From a virus (taxonomy: Duplodnaviria > Heunggongvirae > Uroviricota > Caudoviricetes): 6,047 bases of DNA. Of this stretch, positions 1 to 6,047 are shown in pieces. Each line of letters opens with the position of its first letter. The stretch's first letter is position 1. Under the pieces are notes generated by a model. The model had not been told where the DNA came from. It worked only from the letters and a program-made list of their open reading frames with translations, and made no database searches. The DNA lies in the IMG/VR virus record IMGVR_UViG_2681813004_000006, positions 1 through 6,047 of that record; one strand, 5' to 3'. The position numbers were made by a program, and so were the translations under genes.

Positions 1-1
1 C

Positions 2-409
2 ATACTGAAGCAGCGCACAAAAAATCTTGCGCCGCTGCCTCACGCCCACCAGCAAAACCCGCCACAGGAAAAGACGGTGGTCAGCATTGCCGTTGATCCT
101 GAGTCTCCGGAATCTTTCATGAAACGACCTAAACGTCGCCGCTGGGTTAACGAGAAATACACGCGCTGGGTGAAGACACAGCCGTGTGCGTGTTGTGGTA
201 AGCCTGCTGACGATCCGCATCACCTGATTGGTCATGGTCAGGGGGGAATGGGGACAAAGGCCCACGATATTTTCACGTTACCGTTGTGCCGGGAGCACCA
301 CAACGAACTTCATGCAGACCCGCTGGAGTTTGAGAAAAAGTACGGCTCTCAGATTGAGTTAATTTTTCGTTTTCTTGATCACGCCTTTGCGACTGGCGTG
401 CTCGGGTAA
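2..409 (+). CDS. DUF968/HNH-like prophage protein (YdfU-like), C-terminal part; frame is open to the window edge so the gene is probably 5'-truncated by the window
   Basis: Frame of the 77..409 ORF has no stop back to position 2. Cys/His-rich motif CACCGKP...HH...H...HH resembles the C-terminal HNH-like region of DUF968 proteins that commonly precede rusA in lambdoid prophages (recalled, not searched). The GTG at 77 could instead be a true start. Confidence 0.65.
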   Translation: MLKQRTKNLAPLPHAHQQNPPQEKTVVSIAVDPESPESFMKRPKRRRWVNEKYTRWVKTQPCACCGKPADDPHHLIGHGQGGMGTKAHDIFTLPLCREHHNELHADPLEFEKKYGSQIELIFRFLDHAFATGVLG

Positions 410-421
410 AAGAGGTGACTG

Positions 422-781
422 ATGCTCATAGATTTGGTTTTACCTTACCCGCCGACAGTGAACACTTACTGGCGACGTCGTGGCAGCACATATTTTGTAT
501 CAAAAGCCGGGGAGCGTTATCGCCGGGCAGTGGCGCTTATTGTTCGCCAGCAGCGACTGAAATTAAGCCTGTCCGGACGGCTGGCAATAAAAATTATTGC
601 AGAGCCACCGGATAAGCGTCGTCGTGACCTGGACAATATTCTGAAAGCACCGCTGGATGCGCTGACGCATGCGGGAGTGCTCATTGATGACGAGCAGTTT
701 GATGAAATCAATATTGTACGTGGTCAGCCAGTATCTGGTGGACGGCTGGGTGTGAAGATTTACAAAATTGAGAGTGAGTGA
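422..781 (+). CDS. rusA: RusA-family crossover junction endodeoxyribonuclease (Holliday junction resolvase)
   Basis: 119 aa, the typical RusA length. Motifs LPxPPTVNTYWRR..., ...PDKRRRDLDNILKAPLDALT..., and GGRLGVKIY match my memory of E. coli RusA. Strong SD AAGAGGTGA 6 nt upstream of the ATG at 422. Confidence 0.9.
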   Translation: MLIDLVLPYPPTVNTYWRRRGSTYFVSKAGERYRRAVALIVRQQRLKLSLSGRLAIKIIAEPPDKRRRDLDNILKAPLDALTHAGVLIDDEQFDEINIVRGQPVSGGRLGVKIYKIESE

Positions 782-1320
782 GCGTAAATATGATATATCC
801 GGAAATTACAGGCAAAAGCGGCGAACATTTACGCCTGAACACGCTGGAAGCAGTCTGGATCCAGGGGAAATTACGGATGTGGGGGCGGTGGTCGTATATC
901 GGTGGGGGTAAATCCGGAAATATGTTTAACCGGTTACTGGTTTCGAAAAAGCTGACGAAAACAGCAGTTAATGAGGTTTTACGCAGCATGAAGAAATCCG
1001 GGCTGGAAAAACCGGAACTTGAGGCATTTTTTCGGGATATGACCAGAGGGAAGCAGAAGAGCTGGTTGTCACATTGTACAGACACAGAGGCGTTGATTAT
1101 TGATCGCGTTATCAGTGAGGTGCTTGGGGAATATCCCGGGCTAATCAATATTCTCCGGCAAAGGTACGAAGGACGGGGAATGAGTAAGAGAAAAATGGCA
1201 GAATGTTTAAATCGTACTCACCCGGAATGGTGTTTCAGCACATGTGAGAAACGTATTGCAGGTTGGTTAGCCGTGGCTGAACACATGCTTTATGTACCTA
1301 TGCACGATTCATTTCGATAA
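778..1320 (+). CDS. Putative late-gene antitermination protein Q (Phage_antitermQ-like)
   Basis: 180-aa ORF directly after rusA and directly before a promoter/terminator module, the canonical Q position. Contains an RMWGRWSY motif reminiscent of phage-82-type Q proteins (from memory). Start is uncertain: GTG at 778 overlaps the rusA stop (GTGA), or ATG at 790. Confidence 0.6.
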   Translation: MSVNMIYPEITGKSGEHLRLNTLEAVWIQGKLRMWGRWSYIGGGKSGNMFNRLLVSKKLTKTAVNEVLRSMKKSGLEKPELEAFFRDMTRGKQKSWLSHCTDTEALIIDRVISEVLGEYPGLINILRQRYEGRGMSKRKMAECLNRTHPEWCFSTCEKRIAGWLAVAEHMLYVPMHDSFR

Positions 1321-1417
1321 AAAAAGCTTGCTTTTTTACGCAGAAACAGCTTGAATTCCTGTAAGCTTCGCAAAGCTGTATCGCGAGGCGAAATGCAAGT
1401 TTTTTCGCACAAGGAAG
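1321..1417 (+). promoter_or_regulatory. Putative late promoter PR' / Q-utilisation (qut) region
   Basis: About 100-bp non-coding stretch between the Q stop and a strong intrinsic terminator, with TTGCTT and TTGAAT -35-like hexamers and dyad symmetry (AGCTTCGCAAAGCT). Exact -10/-35 not resolved by eye. Confidence 0.35.
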
Positions 1418-1438
1418 CCACCGGAAGGTGGTTTTTTT
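1418..1438 (+). terminator. Intrinsic terminator, tR'-like
   Basis: GC stem CCACC / GGTGG with a GGAA tetraloop, followed by a 7-T run (1432-1438). Confidence 0.7.
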
Positions 1439-1561
1439 GTGTCCGCGATATACAGTAGCGCAATAAATTCGCTGGTGGTTATTAATACCGTTCTTTCAGC
1501 TTGCTGGCTTTTTCGACAAGAGTTATTGGTGTGTCACGTTAACCGGAAAAGGGAAAAAGAC

Positions 1562-1759
1562 ATGCTAAAACAGCAGGATATGACAGAAACCGCCAGAGTG
1601 GTGTTTAATGAATTAAGCGTTACCGAACCGGCGACAGTCGGGGAGATAGCGCAGAATACTTACCTTTCACGCGAACGCTGCCAGTTAATACTGACCCAGC
1701 TGGTTATGGCGGGTCTGGCAGACTATCAGTTCGGTTGTTACAGACGCCTTCCGCAGTGA
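1562..1759 (+). CDS. Hypothetical small protein (65 aa) with a probable winged-helix/HTH DNA-binding fold
   Basis: ATG at 1562 preceded by AAGGGA about 9 nt upstream. The stretch ATVGEIAQNTYLSRERCQLILTQLVMAGLADYQ has a helix-turn-helix-wing pattern. The track ORF from GTG 1439 starts inside the terminator T-run and is unlikely to be the real start. Confidence 0.4.
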   Translation: MLKQQDMTETARVVFNELSVTEPATVGEIAQNTYLSRERCQLILTQLVMAGLADYQFGCYRRLPQ

Positions 1760-1774
1760 AGGCTTTTTTATTTG
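1746..1774 (+). terminator. Candidate intrinsic terminator overlapping the stop of the small ORF
   Basis: Stem GCCTTC (1746-1751) / GAAGGC (1758-1763), followed by TTTTTTATTTG. Confidence 0.45.
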
Positions 1775-1786
1775 TGGTAAATGGGC

Positions 1787-1817
1787 GGCTGGTGGGTGTT
1801 AGGGGCACCCACCAGCC
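1787..1817. repeat. Perfect 12-bp inverted repeat (GGCTGGTGGGTG / CACCCACCAGCC) with a 7-nt spacer; possible operator or RNA hairpin
   Basis: Arms at 1787-1798 and 1806-1817 are exact reverse complements, with loop TTAGGGG. No U-tract follows. Confidence 0.6.
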
Positions 1818-2029
1818 ATCTGCTCATGCGTTGGGTTCACAAGCAAACCTCAGGCCCACTGCTTTGCGCAAAAGCAGAATGAGCCTATCAGAGACAGGCT
1901 TAATGATCCATGCTTAATACTGTAAAAATATCCAGTTGTTAGTTAATCAACGCCGACTGCCTGGAATTTATCCGGTCGTTACCCGAAAATTCTGTTGACC
2001 TGATAGTCACGGACCCGCCGTACTTTAAA

Positions 2030-2959
2030 GTGAAGCCTGAGGGCTGGGATAACCAGTGGAAGGGCGACGATGATTACCTGAAGTGGCAGGACCAGTGTCT
2101 GGCGCAGTTCTGGCGGGTGCTGAAACCTGCCGGAAGTCTTTACCTGTTCTGTGGTCATCGCCTGGCATCTGATATCGAAATCATGATGCGTGAACGCTTC
2201 AGTGTGCTGAACCATATTATCTGGGCGAAGCCGTCCGGACGCTGGAACGGATGCAACAAGGAAAGCCTGCGGGCGTATTTCCCCGTCACAGAGCGCATTC
2301 TGTTCGCGGAACATTATCAGGGGCCGTATCGTCCGAAAGATGCCGGGTATGCGGCGAAGGGCAGTGCACTGAAACAGCATGTGATGGCCCCGCTGATTTC
2401 TTACTTTCGTGATGCGCGCGCGGCCCTGGGGATAACGGCAAAACAGATTGCAGATGCCACAGGAAAGAAAAACATGGTGTCGCACTGGTTCAGTGCCAGT
2501 CAGTGGCAGCTACCGAACGAAAGCGATTATCTGAAATTACAGTCGCTGTTTGCCCGGGTGGCAGAAGAGAAACATCAGCGCGGTGAACTGGAAAAGCCCC
2601 ACCACCAGCTGGTGGATACGTATACGTCACTGAACCGGCAGTATGTGGAGCTGCAGAGTGAATATAAGCATCTGCGGCGGTATTTTGGTGTGACGGCGCA
2701 GGTGCCGTACACGGATGTGTGGACACATAAACCGGTGCAGTTCTATCCCGGGAAACATCCGTGCGAAAAACCGGCAGAAATGCTGCAGCAGATAATCAGC
2801 GCAAGTAGTCGTCCTGGTGATCTGGTTGCGGATTTTTTCATGGGGTCGGGTTCAACGGTAAAAGCGGCGATGGCACTGGGGCGTCGTGCGATTGGTGTTG
2901 AGCTGGAGACCGGACGTTTTGAGCAGACAGTCAGGGAAGTTCAGGATTTAATCGTTTGA
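2030..2959 (+). CDS. Beta-class N6-adenine/N4-cytosine DNA methyltransferase (orphan, phage-type). The homologous reading frame extends upstream to 1943 and to an ATG at 1910, but is interrupted by an in-frame TAG at 1940-1942.
   Basis: Motif IV DPPY is encoded at 2012-2023 (translation ...LINADCLEFIRSLPENSVDLIVTDPPYF...), upstream of the first canonical start (GTG 2030). Motif I FFMGSGST lies near the C-terminus. ATG 1910 gives MLNTVKISSC-TAG-LINADCL... in the same frame. No adjacent restriction endonuclease gene. Confidence 0.8.
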   Translation: MKPEGWDNQWKGDDDYLKWQDQCLAQFWRVLKPAGSLYLFCGHRLASDIEIMMRERFSVLNHIIWAKPSGRWNGCNKESLRAYFPVTERILFAEHYQGPYRPKDAGYAAKGSALKQHVMAPLISYFRDARAALGITAKQIADATGKKNMVSHWFSASQWQLPNESDYLKLQSLFARVAEEKHQRGELEKPHHQLVDTYTSLNRQYVELQSEYKHLRRYFGVTAQVPYTDVWTHKPVQFYPGKHPCEKPAEMLQQIISASSRPGDLVADFFMGSGSTVKAAMALGRRAIGVELETGRFEQTVREVQDLIV

Positions 2960-3008
2960 AACGGATGAGATTGCAGAATTAATTACGCACCATTATTATT
3001 CTGCTTCC

Positions 3009-3084
3009 GGCCCTTTAGCTCAGTGGTGAGAGCGAGCGACTCATAATCGCCAGGTCGCTGGTTCAAATCCAGCAAGGGCCACCA
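3009..3084 (+). tRNA. tRNA with CAU anticodon, ileX/ileZ-like (tRNA-Ile2 by lysidine modification; would be called Met by anticodon alone)
   Basis: 76-nt cloverleaf: acceptor GGCCCTT/AAGGGCC, D-stem GCTC/GAGC, anticodon loop CTCATAA, T-arm GCTGG-TTCAAAT-CCAGC, encoded CCA. Near-identical to E. coli ileX as I recall it. Confidence 0.9.
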
Positions 3085-3085
3085 A

Positions 3086-3161
3086 CCGCCACTAGCCATC
3101 AGGAAAGAGCGTCAACCCTTTAAGTTGAGTGTGCGAGGTTCGAGTCCCCGGTGGCGGTCCA
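3086..3161 (+). tRNA. Atypical or degenerate tRNA-like gene (anticodon loop CCTTTAA, nominal anticodon UUU; identity uncertain, possibly a pseudo-tRNA)
   Basis: Perfect 7-bp acceptor stem CCGCCAC/GTGGCGG (C1-G72), T-loop TTCGAGT, encoded CCA, and a good anticodon stem TCAAC/GTTGA. However the D-stem is GCCA/GAGC with two mismatches, position 33 is C rather than the near-universal U, and the T-stem has an A-C mismatch. Confidence 0.5.
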
Positions 3162-3163
3162 GT

Positions 3164-3239
<76 letters not shown>

Positions 3240-3247
3240 TCAAGTCC

Positions 3248-3282
3248 GGTGGGGTTCCCGAGCGGCCAAAGGGAGCAGACTG
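3248..3282 (+). pseudogene. 5' fragment (about 35 nt) of a tRNA-Tyr gene, lacking the anticodon and 3' half
   Basis: GGTGGGGTTCCCGAGCGGCCAAAGGGAGCAGACTG matches the 5' end of E. coli tRNA-Tyr (tyrT/tyrU) as I recall it; similarity is lost immediately afterwards (ACTCAGTTCATGG...). Confidence 0.65.
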
Positions 3283-3539
3283 ACTCAGTTCATGGCCAAA
3301 AACGATTTCTGTGATAAATATTTTGAATATTATTTACAGGTAAATGGAGTGGGGCACATGGATAGAAATATTACAATAGAGAATGAAGTATATGCCCGTA
3401 TTGTATGGGCAGAGAAGGCAAAAACACGGTAATTCCGTGTGTTGCCATGATACCTGATTGGCAGAATAGTTGTTTGGTTTTGAGTATATAGTCAGCGTTT
3501 TTTGTTCAGTAATTGCTCCCTCAAAAAATAATAAAATAA

Positions 3540-3660
3540 GGTGATTATTTTTGTTTATTATTTAGTTTTTTTTGTGTGTTGTTTTATTGTTTTTGCGTGG
3601 TTTGTTTTTTATTGTTATTTCATTAAGGGAAGGTAAATTCAGGATGGCAGTCTGTAGATA
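3540..3660 (+). promoter_or_regulatory. T-rich, AT-rich upstream region of the PerC-like gene (probable promoter and curved-DNA region)
   Basis: Iterated TTTTTGT / TTGTTTT / TTATTGTT motifs across 3545-3620, directly upstream of the strong SD and ATG of the 3675 gene. Possible -35 TTGTTA (3613-3618) and -10 TAAATT (3634-3639). Confidence 0.35.
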
Positions 3661-3674
3661 ATCGGAGGTCACTT

Positions 3675-3989
3675 ATGCTACATGATCACGTGGCAGAATG
3701 TCTGGAGAAAAAAGGACTGTACCGGAGAGCAGCTGAACGATGGGCAAAAGTGATGGTACAGCTAAGTGATGACCAGAAAAGAAAAGTAGCGGCACAGAAA
3801 CGAGCAGAGTGTTTGCGTAAGGCGCGCCGGACTCCGGTTTCACCGGTGAACCTGACCGAAATAAAACAAGCGGTCAACAGACTACATTCTGAGTTGGGAA
3901 TGGGATTTGAAGAGCGGCGGGTATTCCGACGATATAAAGGGACAGGAGAACAGAATACGTCCGGAAACGCGCGGTCAAAAAAATGCTAA
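3675..3989 (+). CDS. PerC-family transcriptional regulator (Pch-like, PerC homolog)
   Basis: 104 aa. N-terminal motif LEKKGLYRRAAERWAKVM matches the conserved PerC/Pch signature (ekkGlyRRAAerW) as I recall it; basic C-terminus. Strong SD GGAGG 6 nt before the ATG. AT-rich context typical of prophage cargo genes. Confidence 0.7.
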   Translation: MLHDHVAECLEKKGLYRRAAERWAKVMVQLSDDQKRKVAAQKRAECLRKARRTPVSPVNLTEIKQAVNRLHSELGMGFEERRVFRRYKGTGEQNTSGNARSKKC

Positions 3990-4025
3990 AAAATATCTGA
4001 GAGAGTTATTGCCTGTTACCATAAG

Positions 4026-4052
4026 AAAAAGCGACTTTAGTGGTCGCTTTTT
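4026..4052. terminator. Bidirectional intrinsic terminator between convergent genes
   Basis: AAAAA-GCGAC-TTTAGTG-GTCGC-TTTTT: a 5-bp GC-rich stem flanked by an A-run upstream and a T-run downstream, so it can terminate on both strands. Confidence 0.6.
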
Positions 4053-4070
4053 GTGTCATATATAAGTCGT

Positions 4071-4295
4071 TTAAGTAAACCTGTCTGAACAGGTGCTCTG
4101 GTCGTGTTTGTCTTTGTTGGGTACAAATTGAGAATATTTTTCATTAATTAATCTTCTTCTGCAGGCTTCAATAACCCACGCTGAAAAATTACCTGAACCT
4201 TTCAGGTCAAGAGCGATGTTAATTTGTTCAATTATCTGGTTTGGAAATCGGATGTTGCGGGTTGTTGTTCTGCGGGTTCTGTTCTTTGATGACAT
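4071..4295 (-). CDS. Small YlcI/YnfO-like (DUF3950-like) prophage protein, 74 aa
   Basis: Internal ATG (M35 of the 108-aa track ORF) gives MSSKNRTRRTTTRNIRFPNQIIEQINIALDLKGSGNFSAWVIEACRRRL..., resembling DLP12 YlcI as I recall it. A perfect TATAAT on the - strand (plus coordinates 4338-4343) lies about 40 bp upstream. The longer 108-aa form (start 4397) is possible but would begin upstream of that promoter. Confidence 0.5.
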   Translation of the reverse strand: MSSKNRTRRTTTRNIRFPNQIIEQINIALDLKGSGNFSAWVIEACRRRLINEKYSQFVPNKDKHDQSTCSDRFT

Positions 4296-4465
4296 AATGT
4301 TGCCCCGAGGGGTTACATATTGCCAAAAAACTGCTTTATTATATCCCGAATAACGCGGGGATCCTGCTGGTACCATGCTGTCGTGGTGGTTCGGCATTTA
4401 CCCAGGGCGCGGAGGGGACATTCAGTGCGGACACGGGGGCCAGCCAGGATTCGGCGCGCTGGGGT

Positions 4466-5716
4466 GTGGGTAAACCGTTATATCAGGACCTGATTGCGCG
4501 CACCAAAGCTGCATTACAGAAGAACCCGAAAAATGTGTTGCTGGCGGTGTGCTGGATGCAGGGAGAGTTTGACATGAGCGCCGCCACCCACGCACAGCAA
4601 CCTGCGCTGTTTACAGCCATGCTGACACAGTTTCGTGCTGACCTCTCCGTGTTTAACGCGCAGTGCCATGGTGGCAGTGCTGCAGATGTGCCGTGGATTT
4701 GTGGTGACACGACGTATTACTGGAAAAATACATACGCTACCCAGTACGACACCGTGTACGGCGGGTATAAAAACAGGGAGAGTGAGGGCGTTTATTTTGT
4801 GCCCTTCATGACAGACGGTAACGGCGTCAATACCGCCACTAACGCGCCGGCAGAAGATCCGGATATTCCGGCATCAGGATATTACGGTGCGGCATCGAGA
4901 ACGAATGGAAACCAGGTATCATCAAACCGCCCGACACATTTCAGTTCATGGGCGCGCAGGAGCATTATTCCGGATCGTCTGGCAACCGCTATTCTGAACG
5001 CAGCCGGGCGCACCTCAGCCTTCATCAGTGGTAAGGCACCGGAAATCAAACCCTCGCCCGGCGGCAACACGCCATCGGGTCCGTCTGCAGATACGTCCGT
5101 TCGCACAATCTCCCTGCTGCCGGCAGCCGGAGAGGCTGCTGCGCAGGGCTGGAGCATTAAGGATGGCGGAATTCAGTTGTCAGATGGTGTATTTAAGATC
5201 ACCAAGCAGAGCAATAAAACCTGGTCCCTGACGCATCCGGTGGATGACGCAATTACCCTGCTGACACAGGGCGGCAGACTGACCTGTAAGTTCCGCCTGT
5301 CAGGCGCACTGACCAACAATCAGTTCGGGCTGGGGATTTATCTGTATACGGATGCTCCCGTTCCTGATGGTGTGGCGATGACGGGTACCGGTAATCCGTT
5401 CCTGATGTCGTACTTCACTCAGACCACTGACGGCAGAGTGAATCTGATGCATCACAGGAAAGCCGGAAACACGAAGCTGGGGGAGTTCGGCGATTACGGT
5501 AACGACTGGCAGACGCTGGAGCTGGTGTTCACCGCCGGCAGTGCCACGGTTACTCCGAAACTGAATGGAGTGGCTGGCCCGGCATTCCAGGTTATAAAAG
5601 ACAGTCTGACACTGGGACTGAATGCGCTGACGCTGACGGATGTTACAAAAAATGCAGCGTATGGCGTTGAGATAGAAAGTCTGGTGCTGGAGATAAATGC
5701 ACCGGCATCATCATAA
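4466..5716 (+). CDS. NanS-p-like 9-O-acetyl-sialate esterase homolog, N-terminally truncated (SGNH/DUF303 C-terminal half plus C-terminal beta-rich domain); possibly a gene remnant
   Basis: Motifs IPNNAGILLVPCCRGGSAF (upstream, in frame but with no start), [19 protein letters not shown], and [16 protein letters not shown] resemble the central and C-terminal parts of YjhS/NanS as I recall them. The frame is open from 4298, with the first canonical start a GTG at 4466 and no good SD. The N-terminal GQSN catalytic-serine region is absent. Confidence 0.65.
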
Positions 5717-5800
5717 AAAGTGAGCCAGTCAAATGGAAGGTATCGTTAAACTCACCGGTAGTGTCAGTGGGTCGTCTGAGACGCCTGCATGAGTTATCAG

Positions 5801-5834
5801 AGCCATCAGTAGTTAACTGGTGGCTTTTTTATTG
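5801..5834 (+). terminator. Intrinsic terminator upstream of the holin gene
   Basis: 9-bp stem AGCCATCAG / CTGGTGGCT (one G-U wobble), loop TAGTTAA, followed by TTTTTTATT. Confidence 0.55.
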
Positions 5835-5865
5835 TTGTCAGCTTCCGGATAACGGGAGACGGGGT

Positions 5866-6047
5866 ATGTACCAGATGGAAAAAATCACAACAGGTGTGTC
5901 ATACACCACGTCAGCGGTAGGGACGGGATACTGGTTACTGCAACTGCTGGACAAAGTCTCTCCGTCCCAGTGGGTGGCAATAGGTGTACTGGGGAGTCTG
6001 CTGTTTGGCCTGCTGACGTATCTGACTAACCTGTATTTCAAAATCAG
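5866..6047 (+). CDS. Lambdoid class-I holin (S-like), 5' portion; continues beyond the window end
   Basis: Translation [60 protein letters not shown]... matches lambdoid-prophage S holins from memory. Dual-start motif (Met1 and Met4), SD GGGAG 7 nt upstream, hydrophobic TM segments. Not in the ORF track because no stop falls inside the window. Confidence 0.85.

Follow-up and report, generated by a model that had tools for sequence, protein, structure and literature searches.

A degenerate argN-family tRNA in the tRNA cassette of a lambdoid prophage is probably a pseudogene

Is an element that keeps the outer frame of a tRNA but is damaged in several of its inner parts still a tRNA gene? The question is raised by a 76-nt element at positions 3086–3161 of a stretch of 6,047 nt from a virus of the Caudoviricetes (IMG/VR record IMGVR_UViG_2681813004_000006, positions 1 to 6,047), here called the window. 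It covers the part of a lambdoid prophage that lies downstream of Q. The element, referred to below as slot 2, lies between an ileZ-type tRNA (slot 1) and a thrU-type tRNA (slot 3) in a compact tRNA cassette. An initial annotation described it as a degenerate tRNA and offered three explanations, namely a decaying pseudo-tRNA, a spacer that aids the processing of its neighbors, and a tRNA with altered decoding. The first of these is favored by the present analysis. With a probability of roughly 0.75, slot 2 is a tRNA pseudogene that derives from the argN slot of a lambdoid-prophage cassette downstream of the Q antiterminator and is now decaying. This reading is carried by descent from argN, by lesions within the element, by a tRNA-model score of 30.6 bits against 53–56 bits for intact relatives and 72–74 bits for the neighboring tRNAs, by damage in sister copies, and by blank entries in automated annotation.

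Structure and descent of the slot-2 element

A check of the region with ARAGORN gives a 76-nt tRNA-Lys(ttt) on the plus strand at exactly 3086–3161, the same element and nominal identity as in the initial annotation. The parts described there as intact are so by direct reading of the sequence. The acceptor stem CCGCCAC/GTGGCGG has seven of seven Watson–Crick pairs and begins with C1-G72, the anticodon stem TCAAC/GTTGA has five of five pairs, the T-loop is TTCGAGT, and the discriminator T73 (3158) is followed by an encoded CCA (3159–3161). U33 is the near-universal U-turn base of tRNAs. The anticodon arm of slot 2 (3112–3128) has the loop CCTTTAA, or CCUUUAA in the RNA, with C33 at 3118 and the anticodon TTT at 3119–3121, as had been claimed. 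U8, A14, GG (G18G19), and TTC (T54T55C56) are all retained, whereas U33 is not.

The D arm (3095–3110) reads GCC-ATCAGGAAAGAGC and lacks T12 in the alignment with the sister allele of SLK172 (L001 3137–3213). Its stem, GCCA/GAGC, forms two of four pairs in a 4-bp register. The two mismatches reported earlier are indeed present and result from a 1-nt deletion between 3096 and 3097 relative to the common sister allele GCTC/GAGC. After this deletion of T12 (ΔT12), the D stem has either 2 bp, or 3 bp with a bulged A23. Another defect, overlooked in the initial annotation and flagged in the Rfam alignment, lies in the T arm (CGAGG-TTCGAGT-CCCCG, 3134–3150), where A51·C63 (3136/3148) is a mismatch and four of five pairs remain; in relatives the T stem is CGAGG/CCTCG or CGGGG/CCCCG. 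The canonical four-stem pattern (7/4/5/5) is therefore broken in the D stem (2/4) and in the T stem (4/5).

Slot 2 also matches tRNA-Lys only in part. The UUU anticodon is carried on an Arg-type body, and T is found at 3158 in place of A73, which we take to be the discriminator of E. coli tRNA-Lys. The body is only about 59% identical to what we assume to be the sequence of E. coli lysT. As read from its sequence, slot 2 carries three or four lesions: U33C, A51·C63, ΔT12, and the non-Lys discriminator. Another fold or identity, such as Arg, was sought and rejected, as ARAGORN and the Rfam alignment agree on one register with UUU, and no high-confidence canonical tRNA under a different fold was found at this position.

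The origin of the element becomes clear from the argN gene of Shiga toxin (Stx)-converting phages, a comparison that the initial annotation had proposed. The argN gene is the middle member of the ileZ-argN-argO cluster upstream of stx. In a megablast search of phage records, window positions 2960–3161 (ileZ and the middle block) are 86.6% identical to the ileZ-argN block of these phages. Slot 2 lies directly 3' of ileZ in a Q-downstream cassette, as argN lies right after an ileZ of the same sequence, and it resembles the intact members of the slot over the acceptor, D-loop, and T arm. Its identity is 80.5% to argN, 85.7% to the tRNA-Arg(UCU) of TW10690 (L003 1637–1713), and 89.6% to the tRNA-Lys(UUU) of contig L012 (4006–4082). 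By position and by sequence comparison, slot 2 is a homolog of Stx-phage argN.

Slot 2 and argN share the acceptor family CCGCCAY/RTGGCGG with C1-G72, the T-loop, U73, and the encoded CCA. C1-G72 occurs in all intact members and U73 is common to argN and the L012 tRNA-Lys (TW10690 has G73), and neither is therefore a sign of decay. The first pair C1-G72, listed earlier among the oddities of the element, is thus correctly described but is no defect, being ancestral to the whole argN family including its intact members. The two genes differ in that argN has the anticodon UCG, U33, the loop CTTCGAA, an intact D stem, and a score of 53.6 bits, against CCTTTAA, ΔT12, A51·C63, and 30.6 bits in slot 2. 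The spacer to ileZ is 1 nt for slot 2 and 7 nt for argN.

The nearest intact relatives of slot 2 are the TW10690 and L012 tRNAs, which match it in the 1-nt spacer and in the anticodon stem TCAAC/GTTGA. The D-loop of the L012 tRNA-Lys is that of slot 2, and the TW10690 D-loop differs at two bases. Both relatives differ from slot 2 in having U33, paired D and T stems, and scores of 53–56 bits. The anticodon loops of the intact relatives are CTTCGAA (Arg UCG, argN), CTTCTAA (Arg UCU), and CTTTTAT (Lys UUU), all with U33. A canonical U33 tRNA-Lys(UUU) in slot 2 occurs a single time in IMG/VR, on L012. The immediate sister of the window copy is the SLK172-type allele, which is 77 nt long and has the same C33-UUU loop, the same A51·C63 mismatch, and an intact D stem, GCTC/GAGC; the T12 deletion is the sole difference between them. 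A search of the literature for ileZ, argN, and argO yielded no useful result. Descent from functional tRNAs is thus combined in slot 2 with lesions at functionally required positions, as in a pseudogene.

Probable decay of slot 2 and lesions of its sister copies

The score of slot 2 under the tRNA model RF00005 is 30.6 bits (E=3.4e-5, local 98-nt scan), just above the gathering score of 29 bits. In the Rfam scan of the whole 6-kb window, the element did not appear at E<=1 and is therefore marginal as a tRNA. Its neighbors reach 72.5 bits (ileZ-type slot 1) and 73.8 bits (thrU-type slot 3), and its intact slot-2 relatives 55.6 (Arg UCU), 53.6 (argN UCG), and 53.2 bits (Lys UUU with U33). The undeleted C33 sister allele scores 44.4 bits, and two further alleles, one with U8C (GTEN24) and one from O157:H7, were not detected by RF00005. 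The scores fall stepwise and form a decay series from the intact relatives to the damaged sisters. Other RNA families in the window gave only two sub-threshold, probably chance matches, Plastid-ycf2 antisense to the tRNAs and P26 at 1786–1850.

Folding energies point in the same direction. The plain minimum free energy (MFE) fold was rejected as a test of tRNA-likeness because the genuine ileZ and thrU tRNAs also lack a cloverleaf as their MFE structure. The energy of the cloverleaf minus the MFE was used instead; on this measure the value of thrU is distorted by its own A·C pair. The difference is about 8 kcal/mol (7.9–8.2) for the slot-2 copy, 2.7 kcal/mol for the undeleted allele, and 0–3.9 kcal/mol for intact tRNAs. 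In the TW10690 tRNA-Arg(UCU) and the L012 tRNA-Lys(UUU), the cloverleaf is the MFE structure or lies within 2 kcal/mol of it.

Annotation of the element varies with the allele. The Prokaryotic Genome Annotation Pipeline (PGAP), in which tRNAs are called by tRNAscan-SE, labels the undeleted C33 allele tRNA-Lys and leaves the U8C, O157, and ΔT12 alleles blank. The last of these was followed through the PPompW prophages of E. coli strains that produce Shiga toxin (STEC), whose ΔT12 allele has in addition C71T with a G·U pair kept and is a close proxy for the window copy, though not identical to it. In STEC RefSeq genomes that are 100% identical to the PPompW cassette, only tRNA-Ile and tRNA-Arg are listed by PGAP, while the GenBank depositors had called the same allele tRNA-Lys.

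The C33-UUU lineage is recent and narrow, since the exact anticodon-arm pattern in a tRNA context was found only in E. coli and Shigella flexneri among 185,579 GTDB species representatives. The 39 other hits in these representatives were discarded as chance matches with no tRNA. ΔT12 is found in 14 of the 126 copies sampled, which represent two array contexts, and also in the PPompW prophages. Several other lesions were found within the lineage. The O157:H7 prophage closest to the window (strain 3-5-1, L005) has a C33-lineage slot-2 copy (3284–3363) that is unannotated and has lost 12 nt that cover the anticodon loop and the 3' side of its stem, with T-arm changes in addition. On L233, a 7-nt deletion takes out the anticodon stem's 3' strand together with the beginning of the variable region. 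U8C is present in about a quarter of C33-lineage copies, and others have pair-breaking D-stem changes (G>A/T and C>A) or a T-stem G>A by which one more pair is lost. Overall, about half of the C33-lineage copies in an unbiased, ileZ-anchored sample carry extra lesions. Independent disabling mutations in sister copies are the sign of relaxed constraint that a pseudogene is expected to show.

The same picture is obtained from whole arrays. In 112 arrays gathered through the ileZ anchor, so that the middle slot was not biased, ARAGORN detected a tRNA in the middle slot of 80 and in the third slot of 103 (Fisher p=1.5e-4); it was undetectable in 32 and 9 arrays, respectively. Some arrays lack slot 2 altogether. 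Across 108 arrays, nucleotide diversity in the 5' acceptor and D-arm of slot 2 reaches 0.049, against 0.007 in ileZ and 0.012 in thrU, a four- to sevenfold difference, and the lowest diversity within slot 2 is that of the 3' acceptor and CCA segment (0.008). The surroundings are altered as well, with a rearranged prophage and a truncated tyrU copy next to the cassette.

Several observations weigh against decay and keep its probability near 0.75. The lineage is common, with matches to the slot-2 element in 798 of 5426 complete E. coli genomes. The C33 allele is present in phages deposited as complete genomes, such as PhiR47_1. Loop positions 33–38 are invariant in about 119 copies anchored on the T arm, and four of five acceptor-stem substitutions stay paired as G·U, a hint of some constraint that is not significant. 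The overall diversity of slot 2 is far below that of the flanking intergenic DNA, although these flanks are mosaic and unalignable (pi 0.22–0.27) and so provide no clean neutral reference. In addition, host thrU itself has an A·C pair in its T stem, and such a mismatch alone therefore does not disqualify a tRNA.

If slot 2 is a pseudogene, its RNA would still be made. The element is probably transcribed within the Q-dependent late transcript. Since its acceptor stem, T-loop, and CCA are preserved, RNase P (cutting at 3085/3086) and 3' trimming probably still release it. With spacers of only 1–2 nt, this release would incidentally set the ends of its neighbors, 3' for ileZ and 5' for thrU. The released RNA would form neither a stable L-shape nor a normal anticodon loop, and hence would not decode. 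The element would then persist not through selection but as a part of a compact cassette that recombination moves as a whole.

Two rearranged forms of the slot were also observed. The commonest single argN-slot sequence in Stx-type arrays is an 80-nt form with 14 identical copies (for example L017 2726–2805, L023 8326–8405, and L027 1669–1748). Its acceptor stem and CCA are perfect, its T-loop has 6 nt, and its anticodon arm is replaced by GACGACACGATAACAGGGTTGTT, which could form a 5-bp stem with an 11-nt loop; ARAGORN makes no call for it. In a second form, a 5' half from argN meets a 3' half from argO at the anticodon loop (CTTCTAA), as in L025 1532–1608, L052 9206–9282, and L098 5033–5109. 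This hybrid has an unpaired acceptor stem and apparently arose by deletion through recombination between neighboring tRNA genes.

Alternative roles for slot 2

The explanation that survives best beside decay is a selected processing spacer. Slot 2 would be non-decoding, and selection would keep its acceptor/T-arm minihelix as a substrate for RNase P and for 3' trimming, its excision being the step that matures ileZ at the 3' end and thrU at the 5' end. The short spacers reported by the initial annotation are there, 1 nt (A, 3085) and 2 nt (GT, 3162–3163), and fit such a role. The 7/7 acceptor stem and CCA are kept in nearly all variants, even where the anticodon arm has been deleted or replaced, and the 3' acceptor with CCA is the least diverse part of the element. 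Of five acceptor substitutions in the C33 lineage, four are C>T and leave the position paired as G·U, and none is G>A, but the 4:0 count falls short of significance (one-sided p about 0.06). Some variants break the acceptor stem (AAGGCGG, ATGACGG, ATGGCAA), and the slot is dispensable, as in some arrays ileZ is directly followed by another tRNA or by the argN/argO fusion with its broken acceptor. The cassette is also young, being confined to Escherichia and Shigella, and conservation may reflect a lack of time. Selection for processing is therefore judged unlikely; such a role is possible as a residual one for slot 2, without significant support.

A more active role would be that of a functional, remolded tRNA-Lys(UUU), in which an Arg-type phage tRNA with a UUU anticodon serves for nuclease-resistant decoding of Lys codons during lytic growth. 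PrrC cuts at the 33/34 junction, and C33 itself is perhaps protective. In its widest form, the proposal is that the C33-UUU lineage is a working remolded tRNA immune to the E. coli defenses that attack tRNA-Lys (PARIS AriB, P2-OLD, PrrC, and RloC), and that the cassette with its extra thrU is a lambdoid counter-defense module against Toprim/OLD-family tRNA nucleases. Such nucleases, encoded by E. coli mobile elements, attack tRNAs with just the two anticodons that slots 2 and 3 carry, as two recent studies show. Resistance of phage T5's tRNA-Lys(UUU) results from U39A, A41C, and U16C, with U39, A41, and U16 as the determinants (PMC12409363). The nuclease behind P2-lambda interference, P2-OLD, attacks thrU first; it also cuts tRNA-Lys(UUU), doing so at CNG motifs of the anticodon stem, and a tRNA-Thr(UGU) encoded by the lambdoid phage 21 is protective (PMC12445682). 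Slot 2 resembles the T5 tRNA that counters AriB and the phage 21 tRNA that counters P2-OLD in that it has UUU and has neither the AriB site UAAUC|A nor an OLD CNG motif. Like phage 21, the window has a Thr(UGU) gene in a lambdoid phage, and slot 2 adjoins it. The sequence of slot 2 is U36AAGUU41 in place of the host UAAUC|A, with C16 and no CNG at 28–30 or 40–42, and a working version of it is therefore predicted to be resistant. In addition, UUU arose a second time in slot 3, through G35U on a thrU body, and the undeleted allele is accepted as a tRNA-Lys by PGAP.

The T5 and phage 21 tRNAs, however, are structurally intact and their rescue was shown experimentally, whereas slot 2, known from sequence, has C33 in place of the U-turn uridine and a D stem broken by ΔT12. 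Slot 2 thus combines the same anticodon and the recognition-site substitutions with a structure that is not intact. The resistance features are simply those of the Arg scaffold, passively inherited, and the adjacent thrU copy, being the same as the gene of the host, is not resistant. Since the canonical U33 form is known only once from IMG/VR, it is not obvious that C33 improved a gene that worked. The discriminator is U73 and presumably not that of an E. coli tRNA-Lys. About half of the copies in the lineage have extra lesions, and the window copy combines ΔT12 with 30.6 bits and a cloverleaf some 8 kcal/mol above the MFE, in an allele that PGAP does not call. Altered decoding, which the initial annotation had considered, is unlikely for the window copy in view of C33, ΔT12, and the low score. 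A nuclease-resistant Lys decoder is thus considered improbable, and the counter-defense module that would be built on the lineage is just as doubtful.

Finally, the explanation that slot 2 is a chance tRNA-like fold returned by a permissive program would agree with the silence of the whole-window Rfam scan, but it is rejected as practically excluded by homology, given the 86.6% identity of the ileZ-argN block, the 80–90% identity to intact tRNAs of the same slot, the local RF00005 E-value, and hundreds of homologous copies.

The cassette, its prophage, and the meaning of the probable decay

The initial annotation spoke of a phage tRNA array. This holds for slots 1 and 2, which form a phage tRNA cassette, but the third tRNA is a captured host gene. 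Slot 1 (3009–3084, plus strand) is an intact ileZ-type tRNA with the anticodon CAU, called Met by ARAGORN and tRNA-Ile by PGAP. It is identical over the aligned Stx-phage and prophage arrays, with one D-loop base differing in the O157 copy. Between its CCA and slot 2 lies the 1-nt spacer A (3085, plus strand), which is A or G in sister arrays. It may be speculated that, in the precursor, this A pairs with T73 (3158) and adds an eighth base pair to the acceptor stem; such an 8-bp helix might shift RNase P cleavage and give ileZ an exact CCA end.

Slot 3 (3164–3239, plus strand) is a tRNA-Thr(UGU), tgt in the ARAGORN call, and is identical at 76 of 76 positions to thrU of E. coli K-12 (NC_000913). 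It is followed on the same strand, according to the alignment with the K-12 operon, by a segment at 3240–3282 that consists of the host thrU-tyrU spacer TCAAGTCC (3240–3247) and the first 35 nt of tyrU (3248–3282), which is cut off in the anticodon loop at 3282. In most sister arrays, thrU is instead directly followed by glyT. From these identities, it follows that the cassette has captured part of the host thrU-tyrU-glyT-thrT operon. It is therefore a mosaic of a phage ileZ, an argN-family relic, and a piece of a host operon. Stx phages are known to carry variable tRNA sets (Met-Arg-Arg, Met-Arg, Thr-Gly), for which chromosomal capture has been suggested (PMC7366253).

The cassette also moves. 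The block 3008–3283, with ileZ, the ΔT12 element, thrU, and the tyrU fragment, is 100% identical in IMG/VR contig L115 (2144–2419), whose flanks are otherwise 78–93% similar or unrelated to the window. Therefore, it can be concluded that the tRNA cassette moves as a module with breakpoints at its edges. Slot 3 has also changed its anticodon, since G35U on the thrU body makes it Lys(UUU) in TW10690 (L003 1716–1791), where PGAP calls it tRNA-Lys, and in L140, L157, L172, L176, L200, L284, and L285. Judged by the tRNA body, this UUU is a second, independent origin of the anticodon in the cassette. The idea that each array has exactly one UUU tRNA fails, because five contigs have UUU in both slots, with the C33-UUU element in slot 2, as a recombinant haplotype.

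The gene order of the window is DUF968, RusA, a Q-like DUF1133 gene (778–1320), a DNA methylase (2030–2959), the tRNAs, a PerC-like gene (3675–3989), and a truncated NanS-p-like esterase. A DUF3950 open reading frame (ORF) lies on the minus strand at 4071–4397, and the 3' part of the NanS-p/DUF6645 esterase ORF is at 4466–5716. Beyond the Q-like gene, on its downstream side, a terminator-like hairpin with a T-run (1746–1763, plus strand) is a possible tR'; if so, the methylase and the tRNA cassette would belong to a Q-dependent late transcript. Just past the hairpin, on the minus strand at 1786–1850, lies the sub-threshold match to the small RNA (sRNA) P26, which is probably due to chance. Compared with the O157:H7 prophage L005, window positions 3284–6047 are rearranged. 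The PerC-like gene and the DUF3950 ORF stand directly after the tRNAs and are followed by the esterase part, and the lysis genes found in L005 between these blocks are missing. Matches to STnc100 and AgvB/AsxR-like sRNAs just downstream in L005 (3550–3819) are absent from the window. On L012, four tandem STnc100 matches (77–132 bits) lie downstream of the tRNAs (2265–3380, minus strand).

A tRNA pseudogene in a phage tRNA cluster is an ordinary and known kind of finding. Like other phage and prophage tRNA pseudogenes, slot 2 is a homolog of functional tRNAs with disabling lesions, inconsistent annotation, and divergent decay of its sisters; unlike such remnants, it keeps a perfect acceptor stem, T-loop, and CCA, and may remain a processing substrate. 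Records disagree on the element, some entering it as tRNA-Lys and some leaving it blank, and it is better counted as a pseudo-tRNA in the tRNA complements of phages. This status bears on the codon-usage and defense-evasion roles inferred for phage tRNAs. The middle slot of a very common E. coli prophage cassette has been repeatedly remolded (UCG, UCU, UUU) and repeatedly destroyed. The captured host thrU(-tyrU-glyT) matters in this respect, as the anti-lambdoid nucleases P2-OLD and PARIS are now known to act on thrU and tRNA-Lys(UUU). If the undeleted allele is functional, it would be a natural example of anticodon switching that evades tRNA-targeting immunity.

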